A stretch of DNA of 64,000 nucleotides. It comes from an uncultured bacterium (GTDB taxonomy: Bacteria > Oederibacteriota > JAAXVQ01 > JAUVAV01). Of the stretch, positions 23,496 to 55,600 are shown piece after piece. Under the pieces are notes generated by a model, which did not search any database, was not told where the DNA came from, and saw only the letters and a list, made by a program, of their open reading frames with translations. The DNA lies in the NCBI GenBank assembly GCA_965371665.1, contig CBDUZI010000001.1, positions 9,411 to 73,410 of the forward strand, read 5' to 3'. Position numbers and translations under genes: made by a program. The stretch's first letter is position 1, and every line of letters begins with the position of its first letter.

Positions 23496-24344
23496 TTATC
23501 CCTTCACCGCCCCGGCTGTAAGTCCTTTAATAATATATTTGGATAGGAAAAAATAAATAATTAATAAAGGAATAGTCGCAATCGTGAGACCGGCCATAAG
23601 TAAGGCATAATCCGTAAGGTGTTCTCCCTGAAATACCATGAGTCCCCGTTGAATCGGCATCAGGGCCCGGTTATTAATAATAATCAGCGCCAAAAGAAAC
23701 TCATTCCATACCGCCAGGATAGTAAATATGGCTACCGTGGCAATCGCCGGGGTAGACAAGGGCAGAAATATCCGCCAATATAAGTTGAATTTGTTGCACC
23801 CGTCAATAATTGCCGCCTCTTCTATCTCCTTAGGCACATTTTCAAAGAAAGTTTTAAGAATAAAAATTGCCAGGGCTAACCCGGCATTAGTATAGGGAAG
23901 AATCAGTCCCAAGCGGGTATCGGCTAACCCTAATTTAATTAATAAAATATAAAGCGGAATAAAAGCGCCGGGTATGGGTATCATGAGCGAGCCAATAAAC
24001 AATAAGTATAAAAGGTTATGTCCCACAAATTTAAAGCGAGCAAAGGCATATGCCGCCATGGAGGCCAGGAATAGTACTAAACCCAGAGTAATGGCAGCAT
24101 AAAGAATGCTATTAAAAAAATAAATACCAAACGAGCCGACTTCCCAGGCAGTTATATAATTAGCGAATTTCCAAGCTTGCGGAATCAGGGAAATATTAGA
24201 AAATACTTCATTCTTGTCCTTGAGGGATGAAGCGAACATCCAGAGCAGTGGAAATACACTCGCAAACGCCCATAAAATAAGCGTACTATGTACGGGAATA
24301 TTGGCAAACGCCTTACGCCTGATTCTCATATCTTCCAGCCACAT
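23496..24344 (-). CDS. carbohydrate ABC transporter permease (MalG-like, 6 TM)
   Basis: EAA-loop motif EAAIIDGCNKFNLYWRIFLPLSTPAIATVAIFT and typical TM topology. Confidence 0.9.
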   Translation of the reverse strand: MWLEDMRIRRKAFANIPVHSTLILWAFASVFPLLWMFASSLKDKNEVFSNISLIPQAWKFANYITAWEVGSFGIYFFNSILYAAITLGLVLFLASMAAYAFARFKFVGHNLLYLLFIGSLMIPIPGAFIPLYILLIKLGLADTRLGLILPYTNAGLALAIFILKTFFENVPKEIEEAAIIDGCNKFNLYWRIFLPLSTPAIATVAIFTILAVWNEFLLALIIINNRALMPIQRGLMVFQGEHLTDYALLMAGLTIATIPLLIIYFFLSKYIIKGLTAGAVKG

Positions 24345-24435: not shown

Positions 24436-25338
24436 TCAACGAGTGTCTAATCTTTTACTAAGTTTCAATTGCCCCAGCGATAAAATCAGAAGCATAATCC
24501 CCAGTATAACGGCTTGAGCCGTAGCATAACCAAAATGGTATGACTCAAAAGCCATCTTATAGATACGCGTTACCGGCACCTCGGTATGGAATCCGGGACC
24601 ACCATTGGTCATGGCAATTACCAGGGGAAAAGTCTGCATAGTTCCCAACAGGGTTAAAATGAAGACTAAAGTCGCAACGGGTATCAGAGAGGGAATCGTA
24701 ACATGAAGAAATCTTTTCCAGGCATTAGCGCCGTCAACCTGGGCCGCCTCATACAATTCAACCGGTATTACTTGCAGACCCGCTAAAAACAACAAAAAAG
24801 CATTACCCAAACCCTGCCAGCTCTGAACAATCGCCACTGCAATCAGCGCAGTATTTGGATCCGCCAGCCAGGGACGGGTAATATTTTCCAGGCCAATAAG
24901 GCGCAGCCAATAATTTAAAATCCCATATTCATAATTAAATATGAAACGCCAAATCAGGCCAACTACAATCAGCGAAAGTACCGGAGGAATATAGAATATC
25001 AGCCGGTAAAAATTTTTGGCACGAATATCCCGGTCAACCAAAACTGCTAGAAATAATGCCAGGATATTCTGTCCCACCAGGGCAAAAACCGCGATAAAGA
25101 GCGCATGACCTACTGAATTCCACCAGACTTTATTTTGGGTAAAAATATCAACATAATTATTCAGTCCTACCCAAATAGGGTTGGAGGATATTCCATCCCA
25201 TTCGAAAAAACTGATTCTAAAGGTTTCCAGAAACGGATAAAGTCCGAAAATCAGAAAAATAGTCAGCGCCGGTAGCACAAAAAAGTAGGCTTCCCAGTTC
25301 CGCTTGGTTTCTTTCCAGTACAAATTCCATCCCGGCAT
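24436..25338 (-). CDS. carbohydrate ABC transporter permease (MalF-like)
   Basis: EAA motif YEAAQVDGANAWKRFLHVTIPSLIP and multiple TM helices. Confidence 0.9.
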   Translation of the reverse strand: MPGWNLYWKETKRNWEAYFFVLPALTIFLIFGLYPFLETFRISFFEWDGISSNPIWVGLNNYVDIFTQNKVWWNSVGHALFIAVFALVGQNILALFLAVLVDRDIRAKNFYRLIFYIPPVLSLIVVGLIWRFIFNYEYGILNYWLRLIGLENITRPWLADPNTALIAVAIVQSWQGLGNAFLLFLAGLQVIPVELYEAAQVDGANAWKRFLHVTIPSLIPVATLVFILTLLGTMQTFPLVIAMTNGGPGFHTEVPVTRIYKMAFESYHFGYATAQAVILGIMLLILSLGQLKLSKRLDTR

Positions 25339-34600: not shown

Positions 34601-37600
34601 TCGTAAATCACGCCTTGGGACCACATAGCCTCGACATCAAATATCAGCTCTAAAACGTCCTTCAGACCTTCAAAGCCGTAATCCCTGAGTATTCCGTTGT
34701 GATGGAGGTAGATCACCAGCAGTAAGTCTTTGGCTCGGCCGCGCGCCGCATAAAAGTTCTGCTGATTATCCAGCAAAGCACACGCCTCGTTAATGTCTAT
34801 ATCGTAGTTTTCCAGGACACCACCGGCTTCCAGGTCATTTAGTACCTCCTCGAAGGGCGTGTCCTGTAAAACGTCCCAAAGGACATCGATATTGTCGTTG
34901 ACAAATTCCATCTCATGGAAAGGCAAAAGCCTGACGTCTTGCCGTTCCAGCAAATAGGCCGGATGCCGCGTCCAGACATAGCGATAAAGAATCTCGGGAG
35001 TCCAGTACTTAGAGAAGAAATACTTGGGCCAAGGCAGCAGTGTCTCCCCGTTCATGCCTGAGTCTTCTCTTAAAAGCCGCTCGAACTCCGCATAGGTAAG
35101 CGGATCATAACCATTCTGTTCAACGAGATGATTCAATTCAAGCAAGATGGCCCGCATGGCCACCTTCTGGTCAGAGCGCTCCACACCCCTTCCGATATTC
35201 GTTCTTTTCAGTTCCGGCATGAACGTGGATTTCAATTCATGCTGCAGGCGGTCGCCAGGATAAAAATTGAAAATCTGCCAGAGGTACTGCGTGACTCTCG
35301 ATTCCAGTTCCCGGGCAGAATACCTGGCCAAAATATCGTTCCGGTACGGCTCCCAAAGGCCGTGAGCCTGCAGAAGTCTCATTTTCTCCTGGGGTGAAAT
35401 CGTACCGGCCTGAAACCGCCGCAGGGCGATGATGTCCCTGACGTCGAACCGGCCTTCCTTTTGCAGGGCGTTCAATTGCACGAGCAATCTGTCCGCTTCG
35501 TCGGGAAAAGCCCATTGCTCGGTTAGCAGGTTATCGAAACCGGCCGGGGAAAAACCCATGAGGCTTAAAAAATCTTCCAGTTCAATGCCATTTTTCGGAA
35601 GAGACCGCTCAACGGCTGGAATACCGCAAAAGTCGAAGACCCGCGATTGTTCGGTGAACCCGGTTACTGTCGGCCCGACCAGCGGATTGCCAGAAGCGCT
35701 AATGGCAAACTCAAATCCACCTGCTTCGGCCACCATGAATTCCCGGTATTCCTGTTCAAAATTATCCGGCCGAAAGACCGCTTCATCCGGAACAATGTAG
35801 TTCCAGTAATATCGTTCATCCCAGCCATCGGCTTCAAAGGCTGCCCAGCGAAGACGGGTTTTTCTCTCCAACTCGGCCACGATCCATTGCTCATCCTGGA
35901 TTACGTTCTGCACGTTTTTGGCATTCACCTGGGAAGGCTTGAGGAAGCGGGCAATTTCATTCTGGATTCTGAGGTACCAGTTATACCTGGCCAGTTCGGA
36001 AACATTTGGATTATTCGGATCATAGCCGTAATTAATATCCCGCACCGTTCGGATGAAAAAGGTAAAACTGATGCCCATGTCCTGGCAGAAAGCCCTGATG
36101 CTCTGGTAGTCGCTTAAGTCCAGATGCTCCATTTTCCACACTTCAGTCTGCTCCGATTCCAGCCGGACATCTTCCAACGTTCCGCAACTATCTTCCGGGC
36201 TGGGATGGGTAGTTAAGCTAATTCTTGTTTCCACGACATCCTCGATGGGTATTTCCGCCTTTTCAATTACCATCAGGAGGTCCACCTGGCTGTAGCCGTG
36301 GATAAACCACGGTCTGACTTTTACAGTAACCTCATCCTTGGTAGTGGTTTTTACCGTTAGGATGATGTCAAGGTAGCCTTGCCTGCCCATATAATTACCA
36401 GTAGAATTGTAGCGTAAAAACCGGGTGGCCTGGATTTGTTCTCCGGATACGATCCAGCTGATTCCTGCTGCGGGTTGGTCAGCCAGGGATTCAAAGGCGT
36501 AATGATTCTCGACGCCTTGCTGTGTGGCGGTGAACCGGGTCGGGTCGGTGGCATCCTGCGCCAGCATCACCACGTCGCCGGTGATCTCTGCCGTCGCGCT
36601 GGTTAAAGGCATAACCATGGTCGGAAAAGGCTCGGCCCGAACCTGGTTCGCTGACCGGTAAAGCACCTCTTTGGTGCTTTGAGAAAGTAGATGGGAATCG
36701 ATGTAAGCAGGAATTTCACCCTCTTGCTGCGTTACCGGAGTAAATATGGTTTTTAAAGCTCCGGGAAAACCGCCTGTCTGTCGCTCCTCAGCTTTACGGG
36801 CGGCGGCTTGTGGTTTGCCCACTTCGCTGGTGGTTGAGCCAGAAGATGCGAAATCCGTTGCAGGCTTTCTGGAATCCGGACCGGTATAATAGATCAGGTA
36901 ATCCAGACCCTGTTGCAGGCTGGGTATGCGCAGCGGTCCGATTCGCATTTCTGGCGTCAGCATGGCAAGTCCTTCCGAATATAAATAACCTGATAGGCGG
37001 GGGGATTGTCCTAGCCAGGTAAGTACACTAAGGATAACCGGCGTGAAAAACCACATCAGTCTCCACGCTGCCTTAGAGCGCCAGCTTGCTTCCTCAGGCA
37101 GCTTCTGATTTCGCGCCTTTTCTTTGCTCGCTCTCCAGAAATCCGGACGTTCTGGCAAGATAGCCCGCAGCTTCTGCTTGTCCCGGAAAATCCAGAACAA
37201 TCCAGCAATCATCGAAACAAGCACTCCCGCGCTGACCGCAAACAGAAGAGGAGCGATAAAGTTGCCCATAAGAAAAGCAATAATGCAGAAAACCAGGGTC
37301 AGGCTGAAAATAATTTTCCCAAAAACACGCGCAGTGGATTTGCCCATGACACCGGTTTTTTCTGCAGCCACTAAGCCGAGCGCTGCCAGAATACTGATCA
37401 TTAGTGCAGCCAGGATATCTAAAAATGCAAAATGGATTGCTCCGAAAAGGACAACCGTAAGGACGAATCCGAATAAGAAGAAATAGCTGAATTTAAACAG
37501 GCCCTTGGTAATATCCCCGGCCACCTTCCAGGTGGCCCAGTTCAAAGGCATCTGGCGTAAATGCTGCACATACTGCCTCAGATTCCTGATGGAGCCGCGG

Positions 37601-40600
37601 ATCTCTCCCACCAGTTTTTCCAGCACCAGCAACAGCAGGAACAAGGCGATGACGGGCACGATCAGCGACAAGTTGAAAATTATTGATAGGATGATCATTA
37701 CCACGGCAGCCATGGCGACGACTTTCCAGCGGCTGCGGAGAAGTTGCTTTAATCCGAAGTAATTGAAATATTTGAATAAGACTGCGAGAAGAATAATTGT
37801 CGGCACTGTATAGACTATACTCATGGGATCGGCAGATAAAACCGTTATCACATTCTGGTAGGTGGAGATAAAAGCGGTAATTATCCAGTCGATAATATTT
37901 AGAATAATTTCAACTATTGGAGCAGGAACATATGGGACCACAATATTTCTCCAGACCCATATGCTAATTGGGACCGGCAGCATGAGTACGATCGCCCGGA
38001 TGATGGCCACGAAGAGGTCCTTGGTTAGCAAGACCGGGATTTTAAGCCGTTCCGGCATCTTTTGGACAACTCGCTGGTTAAATACCCAGGATATTCCAGC
38101 TCCCACCAGAGTGGTTTCCAGCATCCGAAGCAAGGCTTCACTAAATGGAATAGCGGTAATGATGCCCAGGCCAGGGACCATGAACAAAACCGCAACCTGG
38201 TACATCAAGGTCGGAATCACGCCATAGGCCATCTGGGACAGGGATTTCAAGCTACTGTGGCGGAAAACCCGTTCGATTAAGACTTCCAGGATATAGGCGC
38301 TCAAGGGGGCCAGGATGATAATCAAATTAACGGTGAGGATGGTTTGCCAGACATTATACTCCACGCCGACTTTGGCTAGATTGGTGATATTTTGACCCAA
38401 AAAATCAGAAATACCCGTGAAGAAGGCGAATACCAAAACATTCGCAAAAAACATTCCACTTATAGGCATCTTGAACCGGATAAAGTAATCTGCACCGTAC
38501 TTCCCGGATACTACAATGGCGGCCTTGACGGGTATCAAGATTTGTTGCTTAACACATTGCCACAGAGGCTGGTAATACCTTTCCCAAAGCTCAATCAGCC
38601 GATCTTTGAGCTTTATCAAAATATCCTTCACCCGACGCAATATATCCAAAATCTTCTTCTTCACCCACTTAAGCCCGTCGCTAATTTTCGTAATTGCCGT
38701 TTTCACAAAGCGGATCATTCGCTGGACGAACTCGATTCGCAGGATCAGAAACAGGAGATTTTTGACGAACCTGATGGCAGCTTTGACGCGATTAACGATT
38801 TTGATGACGATATTATCTTTAATCCAGATAAGAAAATTCACAATAATGGGACGGATGATCCGGACAAAGGGACTGACGATCTCCTCGTAAATCCTTTTCG
38901 GCAGGGTAATTGGCAGGACGAGGGCCAGCTGTTTGACCACGTGTCCGATCTCGTGAACGGTTATACGTACAAAGCCATGGGGATCTAATCCGATATCGGC
39001 CAGGATCCGGCCGATGGGGTTGACCTTCCAGACCCACTGTGCCCATCTCTGGTACCAGGGCAGCTCTCTTTGCAAGGTCTCCGCAACTTGCAGCATCATG
39101 TTGCGCATGACCCGGCTCGGCGTGCCCTGTCTGGATTGGAGGGCGCGGTTGAGCAAGGCCGTCTCGGTCAGGGCGCGTTTGCCTGCCTCGGTCTCGAAAA
39201 AGGCATAATAGTTTTCGAATTCCTGGGCAATTTTTAAGATATTGGGCGGAATGAGGTCTTTAAGTTCGTTTCTGGAGGGTTCACTGACTGCCATTTCCAC
39301 CGGTACTTCAACCGCCTGCTTTAATCCCAGGTACCGACCAAGCACACCTAAGACTATCAAGAGTCCCAGGCCCATGATGCTTCCAGCGAGGATGGCTGCT
39401 CCACCCATGAGCATGGTAACCATCCCGCCAGCCAGCAGAGCCAAGCCAGTAATACCCGCAATAATCATCCGCGTACTTACACGAATGGGGGTATCCACCT
39501 GGCCCTCCCCAGGCGCCATGGTTTCCGGTGGAGAGGTTTCCCTGGGCGGAACCTTATCCTGCGCGAATGGATACAGGGCCTCCAGGAAATCCCCCATCAT
39601 GGCCTCACGTGCCTGGTCAGAGGTAATGGCGTCGATAAACTTCAGCAGATCCGTAGTATATTTATTAGCCTGCATGGCTTCGGAATCCGATTCCACCACG
39701 TCCGTGCCCAAAAAGGTGATTCTTCCACCGAGCTCCTGATTAATCTTGATGGCTATTTTTTTGATTTCCAATTTTCCCCGCGACGTTTGGGCCAATTCCC
39801 GGATTTCATCGGCGATTTTGACCAAATCAATCGTGGTGCCTTTTTCGAGATAGAAACGCCGCTTGAAAAGCTGGAATAGTTGTTCCGCCGTGATCTCGAC
39901 CGCTTTGCCCGCGAAAAACGTCCGGTTTAAATGCCAGGCAAACAACTTCATGCCGTTCATGCGCATTTTAGCGACATCTTCCCTCATGATGGCTTCATAA
40001 CCGCCCAGAAAGAAGAAGCGTAGGCCTTCGGCCAAATGCACACGGTAAATATCCGGGATCGAGCGCAAAGCCATGGGCGGAGCTCCTGCGAAATTGGCCA
40101 GCGGTCCCGGCCGTCCGGTTCCGAAAGTATGGGACATTATGTGGATGGGACCCTGCCCCTCGATGACTCCCTGGTATTTGGCCAGATCCTCCTCCTCGAC
40201 CCAGCCGGTATGAAGTATCGAGCCGTACAACAGTCCCATGATGTATTTGGCATAGGCTTCACCCGCATATTTATCCCCGGCAAACATAGGACTCGGGTGA
40301 TCACCACCGGTAAAATGAATTTTCGGAATCACGCCAGGCAAGGCTTCTTCCACCGCCCGCTTCAGTTCTGCTTCCAGTTCATTCAAGCGCTCCTCTGCAG
40401 TCAGCCGGGCTTCCACCTCAGGACGTAGCTGAGCACGAAGTTCTCCCCGTTTTCTTTCGATTATGCGCACCATGGCGGGGTAATAAATGTCGGTAAATTT
40501 GTAGCTTCCCAGCTTGCCAAAGGTGAAAAATATCCATTTCTCTATTGGCACCCGCGTAAAGTCCACCGGTGGAGTGACCTCGGCCATGTCCAGCAGGTGG

Positions 40601-43600
40601 TGAGTAACCGCGCCGGTCCGGCCTTGGAAATTAAACCAGGGATTATAATCGGCGATTGCCCGGGCGTATTCCGGCTGAAGGAAAATGAGTTTGTTCAGGT
40701 AAAGGTAAATCAACTGGGAGAGTCCCCAGGTGCCTAATTCCTCTTTGGTCCCGGCCTTCACCTGGGTGGCCTGCAAATCCACTCTTTCAATCACGTGGTG
40801 ATAAGGCGCGCCGATATGGGGGGTTCCGATCACCAAGGAATTGAACAGGCGGGAAACATGTCCCACCACGGCGCCCATCGGACTCTTATCGCCTTGACTG
40901 GTGAAGAGCATGTTAATCATTTCCGCATCCGAACCGGGTTTCCAACTCTCGGTCAGGTTCCGGGCAAAATTGTAAAGCCCTCCCATCTCATCCCAGGTCT
41001 GGATTAAGCTGACATTATCATGTTCCAAGGCGGCTGAAGTGACTACGCCGAATTCATTTCGGCATTCAGGACATAGACTATGCAGGCGAATCACTCCAGG
41101 ATAACGCCAATGTCCGTAGTTCACCAGCAAGCGCAGCTCCACATCCGGCCCCGCCGCATTGGCCAGTGGGATAATGGTATTTTGCATGTATTCGGACACG
41201 CCTCCGCTCTTTCCCAGTCTGCCCATTTCCCCACCAACATCTATCAACTGCCCGTCCGGATTATCTTCGAGTCTCATCCCAGGAATAACCTTTGCCTCAT
41301 CATCCACAAAACTGGAAAGGGTAGCCACAACCCCGGTACCCAGTTTGGAGGCTAATCCGGATTTCACTTCAGCCTCGGATGTCATAAGGCCTTTAACCGT
41401 ACCGACCATATCCGACAATTCAAACCCATTCGCATCGATTCGCCCCAGTTCGGCTACCGAGTTACAAACTGTTTGCAAATAAGTTAGACACTTTAAGGCA
41501 TAAGTCCGATTAGTGTGATCGGTTAAATTACTGATGTATCCTTGGCTGGCCAATTCATAATATAATCCTTGCACGCGCTGGTCGGTAAAAGCGATGGGCA
41601 CGCCGGCTTCAACATGCGCTTTGAGGGCTTGATAAATCACTTCAATATCATCTCCCAGTTGCTGCATCTGAGAACGCATATTCTTAGCCACATAAGTATC
41701 CCTAACCCTTAACCGCTCAGCAACCAAGGTAATGTCATGTTGAGCTTCGGGTATTCTCTCTGAAACGCGCAACAAATAAATCAAGTCCTCCATGCTTTCC
41801 GGGTCAGAGAGATTTAGGTTCTGCAGAAGCTCCCACACGGCCTGAAGTTTCTGAATTTTCTCAGGGGTAAAGGTCTGCCCGTCCCGAACTTTTTTAAAGA
41901 TTTCATGCAATTTGGCGATTTCCGACGGCTGCATCCATTTTTCCAGCAAAATGTCATCGCGGCCACGGGATTTAATCTGATCAACCAGAGCCCTTAAGCC
42001 TTCGTCTTCCTCACGGTAACCCGGCCCCATGGCATCCAAAGGAAGCCTGCTGGCCTGTCTTCTCTCCCGGCTGATGTCCTGGCGCACCTCCTCGGCCACC
42101 AGATCCGCGCGTATGTCACCCTTCCACTGCTGGATTTCATATAGAATTTTTAACAATTCGATCTGGCTCGGATCCTGCCGCAAGGTTTGCAGGGCAGCCA
42201 GTTTTTGCCCTATCCGATCGGGAAGAATCCTGCCCTGGACGATCAAATTGTCGGATAAGCCGGCCGCCTCGGAAGCCAAACCGTACTCTGGCATATGGAT
42301 TAAAATCTGATCAATGCTTCTTACTGCGCGGGGCAGGTCATTACGCTGATATATCCCAATGCCCGGACCCATAGTGGTGCTGACAGTCAGGACAATTTTT
42401 TCTCCGGGTTTCTTTCCCAAGCGCCTCCGGACTTGGGTAATGGCCTCTCTGAGTTCTTCTTCCGTGATCTCTTGGTTTAAGATGGCCTGGTCCTGGATCA
42501 TCGTGTCTATATCATGCCACATCACATTAAGCTCGTGCGCCATCTGCCCCATAGTACCGTAGAAGCGGTGCCGGCCCTGGCGATGGATTTGTTCGTCCTC
42601 TGCCCGGAATTCGTGCTGGTCGCCAATTTTGGCTCTCTGCCCTAAATAATCGAGATCACCTTGATCGCGGGCCAGGACAGTTTCCTGATAAGCGACGGTA
42701 GCAAGGATAAGGGCCAAACCGACAGCGGCAACTAACATTAAAGTTGGCGCAATAATGCTGAAGACGACTATAGCCGGCAACATAACCAGCGCGCAGGCAA
42801 CGGTAGTTCCGCTCTTACCCGGTATGCGAGCCGTTAAATAAAACCCGACTAGAGCAATAAAAAAAACCGCAAGAACGACCATCAAAGCCGGGGTAGCAGT
42901 CATGGCTGCCAGGGCAATGCCGGCCAAACCCATCACACCCAAGGCAACGCCGAATACGAAAAATGTTTTTCCCAGGAAGCCTAAATTCCCGAAGCTTCTG
43001 GCAGCCTGATAATGCTCGACGGCTACACTGCTCCTGCGGCTTTTTTCAATCATGTTTTCATACTTACGCAGGTTGTAATTAAACTCAGAGTAAAAATACT
43101 GCTCCCGCAGCATTTCGATGGTACGGCTCGCCTCTTCAGCGCACAGACGGGCCTGTTCTACCGCCTCGGGAGGCTGCCGACCGGCCGCAATCGCGACTTC
43201 AGCTTGTTCCATGGCCTGTTGCGCCTCCGCTTCCTGCTGTTTCGCAATCACTATTTGTTCCTGTAAAAAATCATTATAACTTTGGGCATCGTAACCCAAA
43301 ACCGGTTGATCATTGGCGTTGGTGATCAGATGTTCCATAAAATCAGCCTGAGTCAAAATGTTGGTTTTATTTCTTTGAGTAGGCTGTAAATCAAAAAGAA
43401 TCGTCCGTATCTTAGTGAAAAAACCATAGTCCGGACTGGATTTAAGCTCTGCCTGGTAATAATCCGTTATGTGTACATTGCCCTCGGCATCGATCATGAC
43501 TCCTGAAAAATCTTCGGTCCCATGATAATTCAAGCCGTGGATATCGAAGACATTTATTGCGGTCTGGAACTTTTTGGCCAGGCCTATTATCCGGTTAAAA

Positions 43601-46600
43601 TATGCTTTTTTCAGCCGGTCATGCTCAACATAGACCTCTCCCAGCCGATCATAGGCTGTCCGAATCTGTTGGCCTAATTCAAACAGATGCTGCTCCAGGG
43701 ATATCGATGGATTCAAGGATGCTGCCTGCATGGTTGTTACTAATGCCCGTGCCTCAAGGTCGACTACGTCCCGGGCCTGGGTTATAAGGCCGGGTAATTC
43801 CCGCCGGCGCTGCAGATTATCCTTTGTTTGTACGTTTTCTTGCCGTAAAGCTTCCAGTTCTTGAATCAGCCGATCCTGCTTGTGTCGTGCATGTTGCAAC
43901 TGCTGATACTGATGGTTAAGGGAATCTTTACACTCAAGCAGTCCGTCTTTTTGCGCCTCCAGTTCTGCAATCTTTTGTTTTACCGTCTGAAGTTCTCCGA
44001 GGTCTGGAGCTAAATAATCTTCTGCGCTCATACCAAAGGGTTCTTTCATGATCAGGAATCCAACATCTGATACCTTAACGTCTTGGGAACTTCGCGCAGG
44101 GAAGATGCGGCCGGTGGGAATACGCGCCTTGGCGCTCCCGGCGTAATATTTCAACTGAGCCAGGCCGGGCGTGCGGGAGCGTGTGAAATAGCGCTGCAGT
44201 TTTCTGGCAAGTCTGGAACTCAGCGGGCGGGCGCTGACGACGATGCGGTCGATGCTGCCGGTATGTGCATCCACGCCCAGAGCATAATTTTCATGGATTT
44301 CCGTAATGTAATAAGTCCGGGTTTTTCCGTCGTCGCCGGTCATCACGAAGGGAGTGTCATGCGCCAGGCAGGCGTTTAAAAGCTCCCTTCCGCTGGAGAC
44401 TTCAGGAAATCCGCTTTCAGGCGAGGCCTTGACCTGGACGACTTGCTCAATGACAGGAGCCAGTTTTCGTTGAAGGATTTGTAAAGAAGTTATGGTTTCC
44501 AACTCGAGATTTGCTAAGTGCTGTTGATATACGGGATTTTCGGCCATGCTGGCCAGCAAACGTTCCAGCACGGCGCCTTCGTAACCAGCCGATCGCACCC
44601 AGCTGAGTTCTGCGAATTGAATATCCAACAAGATTTTACTCAAAACGGATAAACGCGTCTCGGTGCTTAACATTTTGCAAATCATGTCGAGTTTATATTG
44701 CTGTTCGCTATCCCTGGGGCTGGGACTGGATAAAAGCTCAGCGAGCTTTGCTTGCCGGTTTTCGGTATTATCCTCTTTAATGCCTTTAATATATTCAACC
44801 ATCTCTTGGTACGCCTGCTGCCTGGCTTGAGTTTGGCTGTCCTTGGCTCCTGTCATTTGGCGGGTTTTCTCCTTAATGGCCTTGCGCTCGCCATTTTTGA
44901 AAATATAGAAAAGCAGCGAACCTGCTTTGATTAAAACCAGGATTCCGGCCAGGGCAATGACTACACCGGCTATGATGGCTAAAGGCAGGGAAAAGACTTG
45001 CAACAGCATTACCAGGGAAACGGCCAGGCCGGCCGTGGTCCCGATCAGGATCGATTTCATCGGCAGCGAGAGCTTGGTCAGAGGATAAAAAGAATTGAAT
45101 TCAAAGGTGGCATTCTTCCAGATGCCAGGATGTTTTTGATTTGCATAGGTGAGAAACGCGTCATTATCAATAATCCCGGCTTTATCGAAACCGGATAAGC
45201 CGTGGATTAAAAATTCACTTAAACTCTGCAGCTTGAGAGGGTGGTTACTAATATGAATTCTTCCCACCAGAGTACGGGTATCCTCCACTGCCTGATCATA
45301 AAACCGGTTAATTCGTGCCGATAACTCAGCCTGGACCTCGGCAGGAGTTTTTCCCTCAGCCTTCCAGGTTTCAATTTCGGCAAAATAGAGTTCGCTCACA
45401 TGATAGGGGTTGAAACCGAGCATAAGCGGACAAGTTTGGCCTCGATTTTCTTTTTGCCATTCGGTTCTTAAGCTTTTCACCTTATCGATTACGGCTGTCA
45501 GCCGTTGTTCCCCCCGGCTAGCAAGAATATGGCCGGTGGCATCATCGCGCAAATTGTACTTCCAGGCTTCTTCCTTCGCTATCACCATTTCAATAACCAG
45601 GTTGATATGATTTCGTGCTGCCAAAGTCACTAAATTCATTTCCGCCGACCTGCGATCGAGAAGATTATGTTTTGCCATATATAAGCCGATGTATTTTTCC
45701 CACTCATAGGGATGAAAAACAACATCCACCGGTTCAGGATGTCTCTCCTCCAGGATCGGCGCTATATCAGCCGTTTTATCTCCAAAGGCCACATGATAGG
45801 CGGCTACCTTCAGTCTTAAGCATTTAGCCGCTTTAATCTGTTCGCGGGTGGTATAAAGTTCATACTTTTTGCTGCCCATAAATAATGTTATATAAACCGA
45901 ATAAGCAATCATGGTGAGCAGGATTATGAGATTGGACAGCCAGCGTATTTTCATGATTTTCGAAATCCCAGGTATAAATTCGGGCAAATTTATTATCGTC
46001 GAAGCTATGGCGGCATTTCGAACAAATTTCTCGGGTGTGTACATCCGGTCTTCAGGCTTTTTCTCGACCGAGATTTCGGCCTCGACACTGCGCGTTTCGC
46101 GAATTTCCGCGCCTGCCTCGGGATATTTTAATTCATCGAAAAATGCCAGCACCTCTTGGGAAAATCCCTCTACGTTCTGGGGACGGTATAATCTGGCTTT
46201 TATTTCTGGGCTGTCCAGGGATATATAGCCGAGTTTTTCAGCAGGATAATCCGCAGCCTGAATCTCAGTCCGAATTTCCAGGGCCTCGACATCTTCGCCC
46301 AAACGAATCTCGAAATTGTGACCAGCGGCTTGCAATTGATCCTGGAGGGCATAAATATAATGCATCTCTTCGCGAGGCGCCATTTCTTCGGAAAGCATAA
46401 TCGCTACCACGGGTACAACGGCTATACGTTTACGCCCGGCTTCGGCTATTATTTCCTTAATTTCCCGAACCAGGGTCGCGATCTGCTCTTCCCGATTGGC
46501 TTCCGTCTGGGATGAAGGCAGCAATATCTCTGCCTCGGGATTAAAGGCGCCGGTCGCTTTCGTGAGCCTTACCCCCCCCATACCGAAGCCTTGAGAAGAT

Positions 46601-49600
46601 AGGCGCACGGCCGGCAGGATGACTTCATCGCCGCTTAAAGCGGCAAGGTCTTGGGGAGAAATCAAACCTGCGCTGGCGCCTAATTTTTGGGGATCCAAAT
46701 GAGAAGCCAGAACTATACCAGCAGCATAGCCTTTATCGGCAAGCCATTGATTTGCTTTGGCGATAATGAGTTCACCGTTGGGTTGACTTAAAGCTTCACT
46801 ATTAATCATAAATCTTTTGGTCCCGGACCATTGGCTGATATCCGACCGGGTTTCTTTGTCTCCTTGCAAGGCAAAATAGATTTTTATTCCATAAAGCAGG
46901 ATCGGTGGCACCAGTATAGCCAGTAAGGGATTTATCACTGAAATGCTCAGGATACCTAAGCCGCTTAAAGTTTCGGCCAGGTTAGCAACCGCATCTAAAC
47001 CTAAAAAGCGAGTGTACACCCAGAAGCCCAGCCCCATTCCGGCAATGATTAATCCGCCCCCCGCGGCTTTGCCTGCCATTCCAATTTTACCCTCTAATTT
47101 AAAAAGGCGGAGTATTTCGGCGAGTTTTTTCGCTCGCACGCCAAACAATTCAATAAATAGAATGGCGCCGAGCCACCACAACAAGTGCACCAGTTCAAAT
47201 CCCATGATCGTCTCTATCAAGCCAGACCAAAATACGACGTAGGCTGCAAAGGCACTACTGCCTAAAAAGCTTGCTATTCCCAGAAATTTATTCCTGGTTA
47301 TTCCATATACAATAAAATAACCCATAACCAATGCAGTCAATGCAACAGCACTTCCCAACATGATTTGAGTTCCAAAGAAAAGCAATCCCAACCCAAGGGC
47401 AATGGCTCCCAGGGATGCTAGAACCTTGTTCTCCAGGGCGCTCCGGATTTTCGAGGATTTAAAGGCAGGCGTATCCTTGCCTTGCAAGAGGGAAATGACG
47501 GTCTGTCCCAGATTTTTACCTAGAGCGTCGATTTGTTCCGAACGCAATGGGGTTGAGCTCTTCTGGATAATTAGTTCCAAAAGTTTATTTAAAGGCGTAT
47601 TTTTTCGGCCTGGATTTATGCCTTTGGCCGTGCCTAACGTCAAAGTGCTGCCTTCGGAAAATTCGGCGGGTTGATAGGGATTCGGACATAGATTCAAATT
47701 CCCTTGCCCAGCCTGACCTGTCAAAACAAAATGTTTCTCGACTAACTGCTTTATGGCTCCGTAGTCAGAATGACGCAAGACGGTTTCCAGAAGGCCATTT
47801 TTAAGTTTACTTATAACTTCATCTGGTTCCTGTCTCGGCCAAAGATAAGCCGCAGCACCTATGGCGAAAAGCAGAGCCCGGGGGGACTTCGCTGCAGCCA
47901 GCGAAACTCGCAAAGCTTGAAGTCTTTTCTCTTGGTCTGCGTCTAAAGTTTGGGCACCAGCCAGATCAATAATCTCCTGGTCCAGCCTATGTATCTCTTC
48001 ACGCTCTTTTTCCTCTGCCTGGGAACCCAATGTTTCTGCCAAAGTCTGAAGCATATGTTGGTTTTTTGCTTGAATACTCTGAGTATCGCGTTGTACCGGT
48101 TTAGCTTTTTCAGTTTTTTTAGCCGTCATGAGTACGTTTAAATTCGCTTCGAATATTTCCGGCTTGCTTCTGTCCAGTTTTAAGGCCACGTTTAAAAGGT
48201 TTTCCGCTTCCTCGCCCTTGAATCCAGCAGCTTGGATTTTCTGACGCAACTGCTCTTCAAACTTATCAATCTTTACCTCTTTTGGCTTTTCATCTTCATA
48301 CAGCTCTTCCTGCTTCTTCAATTCTTTTTCGGCCCAGGCCTTGGCCTTTTCCTCGCTGAGAACCGGGCCGATCAGGGTTTTATATTCCTCGCGAAGATCC
48401 GGATAATCCTTGCTAAGAATCATGCCGGCAAAAATTTCCAGGAAGCTGAACCATTTCCAGCGATTCGGCTTATCGAAGAGTGTGCCCGGGTATTGGGTGA
48501 CATCATGACCCGTGACATGGAAGAGTCTTTGCTTAATCGCGGCCAATAAAAATTCTCCCGGCTCCCGTCCGCCCACTCTGGTCTCGGCCTCGGATTCAAT
48601 CCAGGGAATATCCTTGCCCATGACCTTATGACCCGACATCAGAGCCAGGGTAATGAGTTCGGTTTCGAATTCCATCTTGACGCTGCTGGCAAGTTCAAGC
48701 GCTTTCTTGACAACCTCCGGCCGAAAAGCCTTAAATCCGGCCTGCGTATCCGGCACTCCTCCCAGCGGGACAATCGCCCGGACCATGAGATTAAATCCCA
48801 GGCTCAGGATATGCCGCGCAAGCGGCTTGGCAAAAACCACGGATTCCGGGCCTACGCGCGACCCGTAAACCAGTCCGACATCCGCATTCTCAGGATTGGT
48901 CAGCGGTTCTGTGAGCTTGCCAAAAAGCCCGGCATTGGTGGAAACATCGGCATCTATATAGCCGGCTATATCCACCTCGTCTTCTTCCACCATTATTTTA
49001 TAGGCCTCGTACAAGGCTCCGCCTTTTTTTTCCTGCCTGGCGAATTTCAAGCCTTTGCGGTCGAAATAATACTCGACCCTGATCTGGTCTGCCCGGTGTT
49101 CAAAATCGCTTTCGATCACATTCTGCGCCAGCCGGGCTGAAGCGTCATCGTCTGTGGTAAAAAGAATCCTGGGGCCTAAATGTCCGGCCTTTTTATCAGG
49201 ATCACTTGAATAAGCTACTCCCTCTTCTACAATAGTAATCGTCATCACATCCAGCTTTTCCACACCCTCTTTTTCAGCCTTATCCAGCTTTTCTTTAGCC
49301 TCTTCGGCGTCTTTCTTGGCATCTTCCACCTTTTTTTCAAGGTTTGGGTCCTGCTTAGGAACTAACAGGTTAAGCTTTTTTAATATAGCCGGCAGACTGA
49401 ATATCAACCCGCCCAAGCCGGCCAGCCCGATACCTGTCCAGGAACCCAATATCAAGGCCGCTGGAAAGAAAAAAGTCATGACCACTCCGGCGATGATTAG
49501 AAGAATGCCGATAATCCCGGCAGCAAGCACAGTGTTTTCATCCCAGGCATTCAAGGCTTTACGCTTTTTGCTCAAGTCTTCGTGGTTTTTACGCGCCTCT

Positions 49601-52600
49601 TCTTCATCCTTTTCGATTTTCTCCATCTCCGCTTTTCGGAGTTTTTCCAAGCCCACTTTCGCGGCTAGTCTCAATTCCTTTATCTCTTCCTCCGTAGGAT
49701 TGCTTTTTACCTTAATGACCAGGTGATTGCTTTTCCTGTCCTTGTCCTTTCCTTTTTTAGTAATGCTTTCTTCTATCTGCTCGATGGGAGTAACCTCCTC
49801 CAGAATGTCCTTGCTCGCTTGCCAACTTTTCGTGCCGTCGTTATAAGGATGGTTGGTTCCGTCCATTAACAGCACTTTCCAATCGACTCTTTCATTCCAG
49901 GCCGCGTTATCGTCGATTTGCCGAACTTTTACGCGCAGAAAATCCTCCCCATTAGGATGACCCAGCACCGGGTCCTCGCTAAGATTGGGGAAAATCCGGT
50001 TCTGTTCCCGGTAAAACGAAATTGCCACGCCCAGGAGCAGTCTGTCCTTTCCTTCCGGAATCCTGGTGTTTCTCATATCCACCTTTGCTTCCGCAAGTTT
50101 CAGAATATAGCGAAACATGGTCCAATCTATTTCCTGCATATCATTTGCACTGAGCCGAATAACTTTTTGACCGCTTTGCTTAAATAGCTTTATTTGGTCC
50201 GAGCTCTGTCTTTGGTATTCTTCCGGGGTTAAAACCAGATATGGCAGAAAAGCACCCTGCATAGCCACAGCCTCTGCTCTTTCCATCAGCTTTACGCGGG
50301 TTTGTTCGATATCTTGAGAGAGAGAAGGGCTTGCGGCCTCAGACGTCCGGACCTGGGATATTGCCTGGAGTCCATCCCTGACTTTTTCCAAGGGCGCCAG
50401 CAATTTTGGCGTGAGCCCTCCTTGCTCATAGTTTCGAATAACTTCATTTATATTCTCTAAACTATTGTCAATATTATCCTGACGCCCGGGATTGTCTTGA
50501 TACAGCTTGAGCAATTTATTAAATGCTATGACTTTGGCTTCATACAAAATGCCTTTGCGGCCGATATGCACCAGAATGGCCTGGGCACCTGCCACATCGC
50601 CGGCGCTGCCTAATTCCAACGCTTCCCGGACGATCTTATTAATCTCCGAAATGACTTCGGCATTGGCTTTTTCGGCTTTTTTATTTTTTTCCTGTTCCTT
50701 TTCCAGGATTTTAATCGCCTTGCTTTTATCGATCAGTCGTTTCTCGCCTAAAGCCTTGATTAAGTCAGGATCGGCTTGCTTGCGCTTGAAAACATCATCC
50801 AAATACTCTTTAAATTCATCCGCGTTCGGCGAGAGCAAGGCCGCCGCAAGCACGCTGGACATAACCATGGTCATGGCTTCATCGGCTTTCAACCAGGTCA
50901 TATCCGTGTCTTGCTCATCAGCTTTTTTGCGTTTTTCATTGACCTTGTTCTTGACCGCAATGAGCGTGGCCCTGAGATCTTCCGGCGTGGTCTCGGCGGT
51001 GAATAAATCCTCCAAATTTTTTACGGCTTGCTCTTTTTGAGCCCTCGTTCCTTGCCATAAGTGCTCAAACAGTCCGCCGGATTTAAAGTGTTCATCCCTT
51101 AGTAAACTATTGCCTTCTGTTGGACGGATTTCGGGTCGGGCAGGAGTGGCCCGGCGTTTTTTGTAGAAGTAGCTTAAAAGGCCGGCGATCAGCGTCACGA
51201 TAGTAACTTGGATAGCAGCCAGGGTGATCCGGCCCCGGCTGGTTGAGAACAAGGGAGCCCGGGGCGAACCTTCCAATACGATGTGATCCAATATCTCAGG
51301 ATTGGTCTGGGCCACATACTGAATAACTTCTAAATCCGGGACCAGGCCTTCAGGGCTTAAAACTCTCCCGCGCTGCAGCGCCTCGGGCAGATACTTGAAT
51401 TCCCAGGCCATGGCATTCCCGGTCTGAAGATTGCAGATAAGCCCGTCGCATTGATCCATAACCGGTTTCATTCTTTCAAAAAGTTCAGCCCGGATCCAGG
51501 CCTGCGATTTCCCCTCTGCCAGCCAGGCCTTTATCTCTTCCTGGTAAGAATCCATGGAAAAATGCCAGGAATCAAAGGTAATTCCAACCGGTGCGGGTCT
51601 ATCCGGATGTCGGCCGGCCCAGGCGTCTCTCAAGGCCTTCGCATACTCGATCTGATTCATGAGGTATTCATCCTGACTTATGCCGGCGGCTTCCAGGGGT
51701 TCGAACAATTCCCTGGCTACCGTGGTTTCAAAGGTGATGGTAATATTGTTATCCGCGGCTTTTTCCAGCAGGGCCAGTTCTTCGGCCGTAGGCGCTTTTC
51801 TGGTCAAATGGTCCTCCATCGCCTGGGGATCTTGTTCCAGGGTCTTGACGTCGGGTTTGGTCAAGCGGAAATAATTCGCCCAGTCATAAGGATGAATGTT
51901 GGCCTGCGTAGGTTCGGCATGGGGCGTATTAACAATATCCGTAAGGGATAAAACCTCTTCTTGCCAGGGAATGTGATAAGAGCCGACTTTCAGGTTTAAT
52001 TCTTTGGCAGCCTGCAATTGGTCTGGGGTGGCATATACCTCGACTCTTTCCGCTCCGGTATAAAGCTGCCAATATTTTATATACATACCCATGAGTGGTT
52101 TCAAAAGAATACCCCGCATAGACCAGAAGCCGGTAGTAGTTATGTGCCCGCGGGACATAAGTTCCTGGGACAATTCAGAAAGCGGGGCCTCCTCGATTTT
52201 CAGCTGCTCGAGCACCTGGGCCGGCTGCGCCACATCCGGACTCACCTGGGTGGTAGCCGGGGCGGCCTGCATTTCCGTGACTCCCGCAGCCTCTGGTTGC
52301 GTCATGGCGGAAACATATTGATTTCCTGGAACCCCAAAATACCAGGCGCCGGCTGTCAGGGTCAAGACACTGAGTAGGGCAAACGGAAGGAGTAGCGTCA
52401 AATGTTTGCTTTTGAAAATATTCTGTACTGCTTGCGGCAGCTTATCGTTTTGCAGCAGCCTGGGTATACCAACTCTTTGCTGCACCTGGTTCCGGATTAA
52501 CAACAATGTTCCAAGAACAATTATAGCCGTACCGCTCAGTCCAGCCACCCAACCGGAAAACAGAATGAATGCAGCCACGCCGCTTAAAAAAAGCGCTGCG

Positions 52601-55600
52601 CCTGTCAAGGTTGTCAGTACCGGCCTTTCAACCGATCTCCTGGTAGAAAGGGTGATATCTGTCATGCGATCACGCCAAGATCGATAAGCGATCGTTAGGG
52701 AGCCATCGTTTTGCAGCCAATAGGTTCCTACTGCTCCTCGCAATTTGGGATCCGCTCTAAACGTACGGACAACTCGCCAAATATTCCGCCTATACAGTCG
52801 GGTGGTTGCTTCATCAGCCGTAACTACCAGCAGCACCTTTTGGGCATTGCAGTCGATGCTTAACGCTGTTTCACGAATAAATTCCATGAGCTCATTGTTT
52901 AAACGCCCGGGATCATTAATCTGTATGACAACTAGCGGACGGTTCACCAGGCCAAAACTGGCTATTTGGATCGGAGAGGCCTGTTCGGCTTGCAAATTAT
53001 CCCCACCAATCTGGCGGAACCGGCCGGCCCTCGCCAGCTGGTAAAGCCTATTATCATCGGCGTTTGCAGGGATCGGCTCAAAGGTCTGTGAAACCCAAGG
53101 TTTCAATGCTTCTGATTCGGCAGTCACTGCCGCTTGTACATCTGTCGGCTCTTTGGCTGCCACCATTTCGGCTTCGGGAACTCGGGTTTCAGGCACAGCA
53201 ATCGGTACTGTCGCCACTGACGCAACCAGCTCGGGTACGGCTTCACCGAAGAAATCCTGAAAGATGGCGGCGGCCATGGTTTTGTATCGCATCAAGGGAT
53301 CTCGGTTTTTCAAAAACATCCTTAAATTAACATCTTCCCTGGTGCTCTCCACCGGATGCAGGAACCTTGCACCCCAAGCCAGGCGCAAAGCAAAGATGAT
53401 ACTTTCGCGCAGCTGATCCGGAGTGCGCTTCTGGGATTGATAACGTAAAGCCGCAGCCCGCACAAGATTTTCCCGGAAATGTTGCCGGGCTTTGGCTGAA
53501 CTGCCCTGCCCTATAACGGATTGATATTGGTCGGCCAGCGCTCTGAGGTCTGCCTGCGATAAGGCAATACCGCGTTCCTGTAGTTCGGCAACCAGCAATT
53601 GAAATCCATTGAGGTCCAGCAACCGTTCCGAAGTTATTTCCGCTTGAATTCTGCGAATCAATTTCCGGCGCAAATCTCCACCTTTAGTTTTGTCTGCCTG
53701 GGCTTGCCGGATAAACGATCGTAAAGAGGTGCTCATATGGGGAAATAGGGTACTAAGGGCCCTAACCATTCCAGAGACTTCCCACTCATACGGATTGGCA
53801 GCCCGCGCATGCATCTCCACGATCAGGGCGGCCCGCCTTTTCAAGGCTCTGCGTAATGCTCTCCGGTTGGTAAAGCGTGCGGTAAGTTCGCCCAAGGTTT
53901 GCTGGATTGCGCCTCGAACAAAGGTATCCAGCTCAGCAGCATCATATTTCTTAACCTGTTGGATTAAAGCGCGGAATTGTTTATCCGCCGAATCCAGCGG
54001 TTGTAAATACTGGTCATTGTAAGCACGCATATCGGCATCCCGCCGGGAAATTCCCCGATGGATACGTCGAATATATTTAACCACGTTCTTACCCAGGGGG
54101 GTGCCGACCAAATTAACCTTCGTGTCACTTTCCAGGCTCTGGACAAGTTTTTTGACGAAATCAGGTGCATAAGTCTGGAAGATATCATCATCCATCAAAC
54201 TGTAGATGAACTGGGCAAACCCGCGTAAACCCTGCCGGGCCACGCGTCCGAAAAGCTGCTCACGCGCGGTCTTGCTCGGCGGAATCTCGGCTTCGATGGC
54301 CAGCATGTCAGGCCCTACGACGTTGAAGCCCAGAGTACCGCGGGGGTTGGTAATGGTAACGACATTAGGCAGGGCCGCGATCTCACGAATGGCTTCAAGA
54401 TTTTTCTGAGTATCGGAAGAAATTTGACAAAGTGTCAGGATCCGATATTGTTCCCTAATACGCTCTTCTGCAGCCTGCCGCGCCTTGGGTTCAGTAATCT
54501 TCGCGGCTTTGGCCATCTGGACGCGTATTGCCTTTCCTTGGGCCTTAGCCTGGGCCACAATGCGGGCAACCTTTTCAGGCGAAGCGCGGGCATCGATGAC
54601 TTCCACCGTTAATCCGGGCTGTGCTCTCAAAGTCTTTAAAAGACTGTGGGTTAAATTCATTAGCTTGCGGGTAGTGTATGTTCCGAGCAAAGTTCCGGCC
54701 AGGGGTCTGTGCTGCCCTATGATCTCCTGCAGGGCCTCGGTCTGATGATAAGGATATAAGTGAATCTGATCGGCATAACGATCCCGGACCAGTGAGAGTC
54801 CGTGGTCCGAAGGCAGGAACAGCGGCTCAAATCCCATGCGCTCGCGAAATTCCTTGAGTTCCTCGCGGTTGCCGATAGTGGCTGACATATAATGCAAATA
54901 GGGATAACGCCGGGCATATTGGGCTATGGTCAGCTGGCTCTGATAGTCGCTGATTCCGGTAAACCGGATGCCGGCCCGGATCGCCGGATTAGTTTCTTCC
55001 AGAAAGGCTTTGGCCTGCAAGGCTTGATGGGTACCTCCCCTGATTTCCTGGCCATGCATGTATTGCCCGGTTAAGCGGTTGTAAAGGACTATAACTCCTT
55101 TAACCAAACCATACTCAATTCTACCCGCTTGTTGCGGTCTGGCGCGCGATTGGCCTTCGGAAAGATTGGTCTGGATGAATAAGAATTGCGCATCCAGCGC
55201 GGTCCGCAGGTAATGCTGCAGGACTGGAAATTCCGTCAAATCCCTCCCTTGGGGTAAACCCAATATGGCTTTTACCCGCGAACGTCCTGCCGGGGTTAAT
55301 GCCGCCAATTTGATATCTTCTTCAATCTTTACTTTGTACAGGTCCGCATCCTCTGCCACCAGCTTAGCAACCTGGGCAAAATATAGTCGTATGACCGCTG
55401 GATTAGAACGGACCAAATCTTCAATTTGCCGGAAAGGCGGCAGGGATTTGAAACCAGCCTGAGCTAAAAGTCTCGGTAGTGCCTCACGAGCCTGGGAACT
55501 TAGCCGGAGCTGTTCAGTCGCTAAATCCATCTCCAACATACCAGGAGTCTCGACGAGAGCTCCTATCAACATTTTAAGCCTCTGGTCCTGAAGCGGTTCC

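Follow-up and report, generated by a model that had tools for sequence, protein, structure and literature searches.

A divergent GT2 glycosyltransferase domain, probably discontinuous, within a giant membrane protein of a Goldbacteria-related bacterium

The window considered here, a stretch of 64,000 nucleotides (nt) from contig CBDUZI010000001.1 of an uncultured bacterium, carries on its minus strand a giant open reading frame (ORF) of 12,729 amino acids (aa) counted from the first TTG, along which some 89 hydrophobic segments are distributed and whose frame is still unclosed at the window end, position 64000, so that the encoded giant protein must be longer than this count. Our subject is a glycosyltransferase family 2 (GT2) domain inside this protein. 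A sequence-only reading had flagged window 48525-49260 on the minus strand, corresponding to aa 4865-5110, as such a domain flanked by transmembrane (TM) hairpins; the observation is real but mis-delimited, and its interpretation is partly right. Judged by sequence and profile comparisons, the giant protein almost certainly contains a genuine, very divergent GT2 domain, the relevant elements of which, numbered throughout as aa = (63852-nt)/3+1, are as follows.

25663..63852, minus strand: giant ORF, taken from the first TTG, with the frame open to the window end
49852..50124, minus strand: putative N-terminal piece of the GT-A domain, aa 4577-4667, matched by positions 65-141 of a hidden Markov model (HMM) of standalone relatives (E 2.1e-10)
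49150..49851, minus strand: putative 234-aa insertion between beta2 and alpha2, aa 4668-4901, with which no canonical GT2 residues align
49378..49530, minus strand: TM hairpin within the insertion, aa 4775-4825, Lys/Arg-rich on both flanks and of predicted in-in topology
48481..49149, minus strand: catalytic core of the GT-A domain, aa 4902-5124, delimited by homology searches, residue mapping and fold match
48373..48480, minus strand: post-core helices, aa 5125-5160, present in the AlphaFold2 (AF2) model with a predicted local distance difference test score (pLDDT) of ~81

Identity of the domain and its relatives

The three closest relatives of the domain are fragments of giant ORFs in metagenome-assembled genomes of FCPU426, with which the window ORF is collinear from about aa 4260 to 8000 (33-41% identity). 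We refer to the window ORF and these three FCPU426 (Goldbacteria) giant ORFs as the clade, within which the GT2 domains share 43-46% identity. The host bacterium itself is, on such sequence evidence, related to candidate division FCPU426 (Goldbacteria); by 16S rRNA, FCPU426 groups with the cellulolytic candidate phylum Goldbacteria (PMC7031533).

All of the peptides on which the earlier reading relied (TITIVEEG, TTDDD, YIDADVST and PDTQAGFKAFR) are present in frame in the flagged stretch. Pfam, applied to the whole ORF in chunks, reports four domains, namely a glycoside hydrolase family 5 (GH5) cellulase, SecY, SecA_DEAD and the SecA P-loop, and detects no GT2; on the isolated segment PF00535 scores 12.4 bits (E 0.16), short of its gathering cut-off of 23.3, and the dolichyl-phosphate hexose transferase model of NCBIfam likewise stays sub-threshold (E 0.14). 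Using the single sequence as query, phmmer returned only noise from the PDB and a word-indexed search gave two marginal GT2 matches. The failed Pfam test is nevertheless outweighed by more sensitive sequence searches. An exhaustive phmmer run against 1.84 billion representatives yielded 1,399 relatives at E<=1e-3, PF00535 is carried by 18 of the 23 relatives that were aligned, and an HMM made from 106 ordinary short GT2 proteins matches aa 4933-5112 with E 1.3e-39. A clade-only profile, composed of the query and its three closest relatives, retrieves 59 database proteins at E<=1e-5, nearly all of them with PF00535 and, where named, mostly called 'dolichyl-phosphate beta-glucosyltransferase'; against the PDB its sole match is dolichol-phosphate mannose synthase (DPMS; 5mlz, E 0.0018). 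The predicted model has the GT-A fold, and Foldseek places DPMS at the top by a clear margin, followed by ArnC and GtrB and then by the other phosphate-acceptor families GT55, GT81 and GT78. The assignment to a GT-A/GT2 enzyme of the polyisoprenyl-phosphate type, proposed from the letters of the sequence, is thus borne out by both the profile and the structural comparison with DPMS.

The Pfam check that had been suggested for this proposal therefore gave a divided answer, in that profile methods find GT2 while PF00535 itself remains below threshold. Similarly, the earlier reading had named the lack of any GT2 HMM match together with loss of the DxD aspartates as what would count against it; as far as Pfam goes the former is what we see, whereas the aspartates are retained. 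Pfam saw no GT2 because the domain is both divergent and, as argued below, probably split, and this holds a lesson for the annotation of giant proteins, which are mostly 'dark'. The occurrence of GT2 in a giant protein is in itself a known phenomenon, and among the best 50 HMMER matches to the domain 29 proteins have at least 1,000 aa and 9 at least 3,000 aa. No second GT2 copy was found in the giant ORF.

An interrupted GT-A domain

Alignment of the predicted cytoplasmic segment upstream of the hairpin with its relatives brings out a conserved block, GVAISFYREQNRI...HPNGEDFLRVKVRQIDD...VDWKVLLMDG, that looks like the N-terminal part of the closest standalone relatives, proteins of ~410-430 aa without a TM helix. 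An HMM built only from these standalone proteins, ten in number, with no clade member in it, matches the window ORF as two complementary pieces, HMM positions 65-141 on aa 4579-4666 (E 2.1e-10) and 146-397 on aa 4905-5150 (E 1.3e-20). In all four clade members the break lies at HMM position 141/143, with 224-462 aa between the pieces. None of 39 other large GT2-carrying proteins breaks there: the match is continuous in most of them, the Omnitrophota giants P0018 and P0038 among them, and in three (P0056, P0062 and P0104) it is interrupted elsewhere by a short gap of ~65-70 aa. By these sequence comparisons the split is seen only in the window ORF and the three FCPU426 giant ORFs. A 55-sequence alignment gives the same picture, the canonical PAYNE..RI and VVDDG motifs falling on aa 4600-4667, where E4616 and R4619 are more than 90% conserved, nothing canonical falling on aa 4668-4901, and the correspondence resuming just before helix alpha2.

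The upstream piece so delimited comprises a lead-in helix, beta1 'GVAISFYREQNRI', an 'HPNGEDFL' loop, alpha1 and beta2 'VDWKVLLMD'. The insertion holds a small alpha/beta unit (strands HLVIKV, TITIVE and RILF), long charged helices and the TM hairpin. The core then runs in the order alpha2, KKGG, D4967-A-D4969-V-S, GSR4999, an IFH1-like amphipathic helix, D5035-TQAGFK, FETE and W..S..E, and is followed by the post-core hydrophobic helix RWKWFSFLEIFAGMIL (aa 5131-5146), which, from the model, may lie at the membrane interface. When aa 4565-5160 are given to AF2 as one chain, pLDDT is 83.8 and the predicted template-modelling score (pTM) 0.81, whereas a model restricted to the core gives 76.8 and 0.76. 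In the joint model pLDDT values of 89-97 are obtained over the upstream piece, and the insertion is drawn as a helix of ~75 residues running into TM1, then TM2 and a returning charged helix, with the caveat on this joint model that the input alignment had already set canonical N-termini on the upstream piece. These alignments and models indicate that the GT-A domain is probably discontinuous, with beta1-alpha1-beta2 standing apart from the rest, a reading that rests on four sequences together with the models.

It follows that the upstream TM pair of the earlier reading is real (aa 4775-4825, nt 49378-49530), though it would sit within the glycosyltransferase domain rather than flank it. Likewise, the 'V.I.VEEG' and 'DDD' strings, which had been taken for the N-terminal motifs of the GT-A domain, are both found at the C-terminal end of the inserted segment, and were misassigned because the domain is discontinuous; the true beta1/YxE..R motif (E4616, R4619) and the beta2 Asp (D4664) would be those of aa 4600-4667, nt 49852-50055, outside the flagged coordinates.

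Some observations pull in the other direction. In-silico excision of the insertion raises the PF00535 score only to 14.8 bits (E 0.028) from 12.1, and the spliced match reaches profile position 25, in beta2, and not position 1, in beta1. The upstream piece goes unrecognised by the HMM of ordinary short GT2 proteins, and its assignment therefore depends on the ~410-430-aa relatives, MAFFT and AF2. Finally, invariant columns among the four clade members make up 28% of the upstream piece, 22% of the catalytic core and 7-10% of the bulk of the insertion, yet 31% of the TITIV..ILFTTD strands, so that strands inside the insertion are as conserved as the core.

This last point could be accommodated by a contiguous, degenerate GT2 in which TITIVEEG is beta1, TTDDD supplies the beta2 Asp, alpha1 has been lost and the upstream piece is a vestigial tandem copy, an arrangement that we regard as unlikely. 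Besides the 31% of invariant columns in TITIV..ILFTTD, D4901 is invariant, and many relatives of 1,400-2,200 aa contain two or three tandem GT2 domains, which makes duplication common in the family. However, no HMM links TITIV..ILFTTD to the N-terminus of GT2 (domain E 10 with filters off), and the TITIV/RILFT region has a pLDDT of only 46-55 in the truncated model, rising to 76-90 in the joint one. The supposedly vestigial piece keeps E4616, R4619 and D4664 invariant and is conserved as the core is. Moreover, all four clade members have abundant Lys and Arg on either side of the insert's TM region; the number of TM segments should then be even, as a split domain requires. An early reading, that the PxYNE motif and helix alpha1 had simply been lost, was dropped after the upstream conserved block and the two-piece HMM match had been found.

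If the discontinuous arrangement is correct, it would be a new example of how far the GT-A fold can be interrupted. GT-A glycosyltransferases rank among the most thoroughly surveyed of enzyme folds, and a survey covering over half a million sequences assigned the large insertions that are tolerated to three hypervariable regions, namely beta3-alphaC, beta6-beta7 and the C-terminal tail. A beta2-alpha2 insertion of 224-462 residues, conserved, containing TM helices and located in the nucleotide-binding half, would, if true, represent a new mode of anchoring for a GT-A enzyme; in the literature searched we found no description of TM helices interrupting a GT-A domain, as the internal hairpin would do here.

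Catalytic residues and candidate acceptors

A profile alignment onto Pyrococcus DPMS gives the following residue equivalences, the roles (donor and metal, acceptor phosphate) being taken from PMC5526996 and PMC7185993.

DxD motif: DPMS D89 and D91; window D4967 and D4969
GT2-DP acceptor-phosphate pocket: DPMS R117, R131, S135 and D154; window R4999, R5013, S5017 and D5035
Metal ligand: DPMS Q93; window Ser
Contact to sugar hydroxyl and phosphoester oxygen: DPMS K178; window Glu
A-loop: DPMS R202; window without equivalent

In addition, D4664 corresponds to D39, the beta2 Asp of DPMS. All four clade members keep the equivalents of D39, D89, D91, R117, R131, S135 and D154 unchanged, and D4967-A-D4969 is invariant in alignments of both 23 and 55 sequences; the identification of YIDADVST as the DxD motif stands. 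The PDTQAGFKAFR block was also rightly recognised as the conserved D..G.K block, its Asp being equivalent to DPMS D154; as a signature of GtrB or DPM1, however, DTQxGFK fails, for DPMS has KDPVSGF at this place, and D157 of GtrB, whose proposed catalytic role is debated, corresponds to DPMS G158 and window G5039. The string DTQxGxK occurs in 143 of the 153 sequences examined (152 matched domains plus the query), and at the sequence level DTQxGFK is a signature of the ALG5-like branch ('dolichyl-phosphate beta-glucosyltransferase').

The window domain would accordingly be placed, by its sequence, in the phosphate-acceptor GT2-DP branch, with DPM1/DPMS and ALG5-like proteins, ArnC and GtrB being more distant. 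With the Pyrococcus furiosus DPMS (PDB 5MLZ, GT2-DP, DPM1 family) it has in common the DxD, the base-binding Asp, the YxE Glu, the equivalents of R117, R131, S135 and D154, an amphipathic helix with Arg and Ser and, presumably, a cytoplasm-facing, membrane-tethered position. It differs in that identity is ~20% and that DPMS is contiguous with four C-terminal TM helices, whereas the beta2-alpha2 loop of the window domain would be interrupted by 234 aa with a TM hairpin, and the domain is part of a protein of at least 12,729 aa. GtrB and ArnC are likewise bacterial GT2 enzymes that load sugar on lipid phosphate at the cytoplasmic face (as the window domain is predicted to do), and share with it a TM-helix-pair anchor, the DxD and the GSR arginine; their TM pair, however, is C-terminal, after juxtamembrane helices, and forms tetramers, and GtrB has D157 where the window domain has Gly. 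The nearest sequences outside giant proteins, at 24-31% identity, are ALG5-like bacterial GT2 and the standalone relatives of ~410-430 aa (P0153-P0163), with which the DADLST and DTQxGFKAF motifs are shared and, for the 410-430-aa group, an 'HPxGEDFL' loop between beta1 and alpha1; these are contiguous, lack a TM helix and are not in giants, and their names are database annotations only.

The standalone relatives also carry an N-terminal helical extension of ~85 aa. A further set of uncharacterised proteins of 1,400-2,200 aa (P0006-P0016, P0023, P0026, P0029 and P0042) has two or three tandem ALG5-like GT2 domains, with family motifs that include FVEDEP..DY.RDL.EE and DTQVGAKAF.

The conservation of these residues makes it likely that the GT2 module is catalytically active. 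A pseudo-enzyme, in which the GT-A scaffold serves structure or binds sugar nucleotide or lipid with no transferase activity, would fit the extreme divergence, the sub-threshold Pfam scores, a nucleotide-binding half broken by a large insertion, and the changed or absent equivalents of DPMS Q93, K178 and R202; inactive GT-A scaffolds such as COSMC do exist (PMC7185993). We consider it very unlikely, because the donor, metal and acceptor-phosphate residues are all invariant across four proteins that are only 43-46% identical, because scaffolds of the COSMC type have lost the DxD (PMC7185993) that the window domain retains, and because Ser in the place of Q93 (DADLS) is normal in the ALG5-like branch (it is found in 57 of the 65 sequences that fit the DxD-context pattern). 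Of the A-loop latch E12-R202-K208 of DPMS, E12 corresponds to E4616, R202 has no equivalent, and K208 aligns with R5092 in the window and with Thr in the relatives.

As to the acceptor, R117, R131, S135 and D154 together have been described as the dolichol-phosphate signature of GT2-DP (PMC7185993), and their conservation would favour polyprenyl phosphate, the likeliest of the candidate acceptors, for which we put the chances as about even. Several observations count against it, or against the reaction as a whole. Q93, K178 and R202 of DPMS are not conserved (Ser, Glu and no equivalent). The same phosphate-binding residues are found in GpgS and MpgS, which have soluble phospho-acceptors (PMC7185993). 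Charged helices, predicted ~54 residues before TM1, could keep the catalytic domain off the bilayer. No partner flippase (GtrA-like) or GT-C was found by Pfam in the ORF or in 25 kb downstream; within the ORF, aa 4300-12729 were scanned at E<=1 as ten overlapping pieces of 900 aa each, which gave nothing but noise, e.g. Wzy_C at E 0.004 over one TM helix. The nearest standalone relatives lack a TM helix and have acyltransferase, patatin and GDPD genes as neighbours, not genes of a polyprenyl pathway: a PlsC-type acyltransferase, or patatin and GDPD genes, adjoin the loci L007 (P0157) and L009 (P0159). From such gene neighbourhoods there is a hint that the subfamily may act on glycerolipid-type rather than polyprenyl acceptors.

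A GT2 that is active on some other acceptor must hence be weighed, the candidates being the giant protein itself, another protein or an oligosaccharide, modified in the cytoplasm prior to export by way of the SecY/SecA-like module, or else a glycerophospholipid-type lipid or a soluble phospho-acid as with GpgS/MpgS; we hold this to be possible, though improbable. The SecY-like and SecA-like domains in the same ORF would be in keeping with a pre-export acceptor. In the accessory Sec system, SecA2/SecY2 operate with dedicated glycosyltransferases for serine-rich adhesins. This system (compare PMC6973325) would be a parallel, the likeness lying in a dedicated SecY/SecA tied to glycosyltransferase activity and a very large surface protein. 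It is an analogy only: in the accessory Sec system the genes are separate and the glycosyltransferases act on protein Ser/Thr, whereas the window has one ORF and a phosphate-acceptor signature. The standalone relatives without TM helix and their PlsC-type acyltransferase, patatin and GDPD neighbours, the lack of a detected flippase or GT-C partner in the ORF and 25 kb downstream, and the long charged helices that may keep the domain off the membrane could all be taken in the same sense. Against it, DPMS is both the sole PDB match of the clade profile and the best structural match, and the four GT2-DP signature residues are invariant. Furthermore, the helix at aa 5011-5027 that carries R5013 and S5017 is amphipathic (hydrophobic moment, muH, 0.43), and the post-domain helix at aa 5131-5146, of low moment, keeps its hydrophobic character in the clade; both may be interface helices. 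SecY and SecA were not found in the ORF parts that precede GT2 in the three FCPU426 relatives.

With somewhat better than even confidence, we favour an active, discontinuous module of the GT2-DP branch within a multi-pass giant membrane protein. In such a module the two halves would assemble on the cytoplasmic face, with the hairpin as an internal membrane tether; a nucleotide sugar and a divalent metal would be bound through D4664 and D4967/D4969, and the sugar, a hexose, would pass by an inverting reaction onto the phosphate group of a polyprenyl phosphate that is bound in the membrane and held in place by R4999, R5013, S5017 and D5035. Once flipped, the lipid-linked sugar would serve for glycosylation on the outside, with envelope polymers as possible targets, or else those parts of the giant protein that are exported and bear GH5.

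Membrane topology, companion domains and related giant proteins

The remaining domains and TM elements of the ORF that bear on the topology are as follows.

62632..63345, minus strand: GH5 cellulase-like domain, aa 170-407, Pfam PF00150 at 26.3 bits (cut-off 23.5)
56734..57669, minus strand: SecY-like channel domain, aa 2062-2373, Pfam PF00344 over nearly the whole model, E 5.9e-40
54130..56430, minus strand: SecA-like ATPase, aa 2475-3241, SecA_DEAD E 8e-16 and P-loop_SecA E 4e-6
51166..51234, minus strand: TM helix, aa 4207-4229, with C-flank YKKRRATPAR, predicted to return the chain to the cytoplasm ahead of GT2
46870..47424, minus strand: bundle of ~6 TM helices, aa 5477-5661, recognised by hydrophobicity and conserved in position in the relatives

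The GT2 domain is probably cytoplasmic, as the sequence-only reading had it, and the GH5 domain would accordingly lie outside the cell, because flank charge, TM count and lysine-plus-arginine (K+R) composition agree. The hairpin is flanked by KKRK and KKLNLLVPK; counting TM helices from the SecA-like domain, which must be cytoplasmic, gives a consistent chain; and K+R makes up 14-17% of the SecA segment and of the sequence on either side of GT2, and 7-8% of the GH5 segment (GH5 itself 7.4%) and of the predicted outside loop aa 3839-4206. The two enzyme domains are therefore predicted to face opposite sides of the membrane, which suggests a division of labour, with hydrolysis outside and synthesis of a lipid-linked sugar inside.

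The downstream 'TM pair' of the earlier reading is in fact the bundle of ~6 helices, at aa 5477-5661 and thus ~330 aa after the domain, on which Pfam gives no match. With TM helices on both sides of the domain, one could think of an enzyme like cellulose, chitin or hyaluronan synthase, which would make a polysaccharide processively and extrude it through this bundle. Such an enzyme is extremely improbable here: the Q/RxxRW motif, which defines that clade (PMC7185993), occurs nowhere in the ORF, matches to such proteins rank well below DPMS, and the bundle begins only ~330 aa past the domain.

The SecY-like channel is directly followed by SecA_DEAD and the SecA P-loop in one ORF (window 54130-57669, minus strand). 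The former matches residues 15-418 of E. coli SecY with E 1e-34, and the latter, consisting of SecA_DEAD at aa 2475-2715 and the P-loop at aa 3022-3241, matches SecA in the PDB with E 2.5e-14; in the literature searched we found no mention of SecY fused with SecA within a giant protein. It is tempting to combine these modules in a self-inserting SecY/SecA machine, the GT2 enzyme of which, built from halves on the two sides of the hairpin, gains activity only when this stretch of chain is properly threaded into the membrane, and which makes a lipid-linked sugar and glycosylates its own cellulase-bearing segments or the envelope, although we regard this combined picture as decidedly doubtful.

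In this context, the coexistence of glycosyltransferase (GT) and glycoside hydrolase (GH) domains in one polypeptide, which had been called unusual, is already published for the giant proteins of Omnitrophota, which are TM-rich, contain SecA_DEAD, consistently carry both GH and GT and lie beside carbohydrate-import genes (West-Roberts et al. 2023, bioRxiv 10.1101/2023.11.21.568195). With these 'Archaeovorins' the window shares an ORF far longer than 20 kb (38.2 kb here), many TM helices, a divergent SecA_DEAD, GH and GT in one polypeptide (GH5 and GT2) and adjacent carbohydrate-import genes (ABC permeases and a binding protein), and the Omnitrophota giants P0018 and P0038 also carry the ALG5-like type of GT2. 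Unlike the window protein, which belongs to a FCPU426/Goldbacteria-like lineage, they have contiguous GT2 domains, the domains highlighted by West-Roberts et al. 2023 are GT5 and GT1, and SecYEG is encoded elsewhere, whereas a full SecY-like domain is fused in the window ORF. At E<=0.01, Pfam finds no C39 peptidase, methyltransferase or NUDIX domain in the giant ORF. No link between FCPU426/Goldbacteria and giant proteins was found in the literature searched. The window extends giant GH-plus-GT membrane proteins from Omnitrophota to a lineage like FCPU426/Goldbacteria, which is known to degrade cellulose.

A second, weak GH5-like match is found at about aa 10386-10471 (window ~32440-32700, minus strand; E 0.008), and the low K+R content of both GH5-like regions suggests an extracytoplasmic location for them. 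The FCPU426 relative DAOWGI010000097 (L004) has, ahead of its split GT2, a LysM domain of the peptidoglycan-binding type (ORF aa 827-870; Pfam E 2e-10), which is absent from the window ORF. About 12 TM helices are packed at aa 8460-8861 (window 37270-38475, minus strand), a cluster without Pfam match, for which a search of 5.8 billion proteins gave no homologue at E<=1e-3 and which may be a transporter-like or GT-C-like module. Towards its N-terminus the ORF appears to contain a duplicated membrane module of ~1,000 aa: when aa 1-100 and aa 1015-1140 are compared, aa 28-46 recur as aa 1061-1079, and the peptide upstream of the TTG 'start' (..NVIFCEFLAHIWD, window 63853-64000) repeats aa 1023-1035.

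Downstream of the giant ORF, window 261-25338 is occupied by genes on the same strand.

23496-24344 and 24436-25338, minus strand: two ABC permeases (sugar-type, BPD_transp_1)
16787-18565, minus strand: OmpA-family protein
9612-13226, minus strand: S-layer SlpA_C-like protein of 1,204 aa
8126-9601, minus strand: protein with FlgD-Ig and weak Por_Secre_tail matches
1568-6784, minus strand: DUF6259 protein of 1,738 aa
261-1571, minus strand: SBP_bac_1 sugar-binding protein

In related contigs a GH94 phosphorylase follows beyond the point corresponding to the window end, and, by its annotated gene content, the downstream region looks like a locus for cellodextrin uptake and the cell surface.

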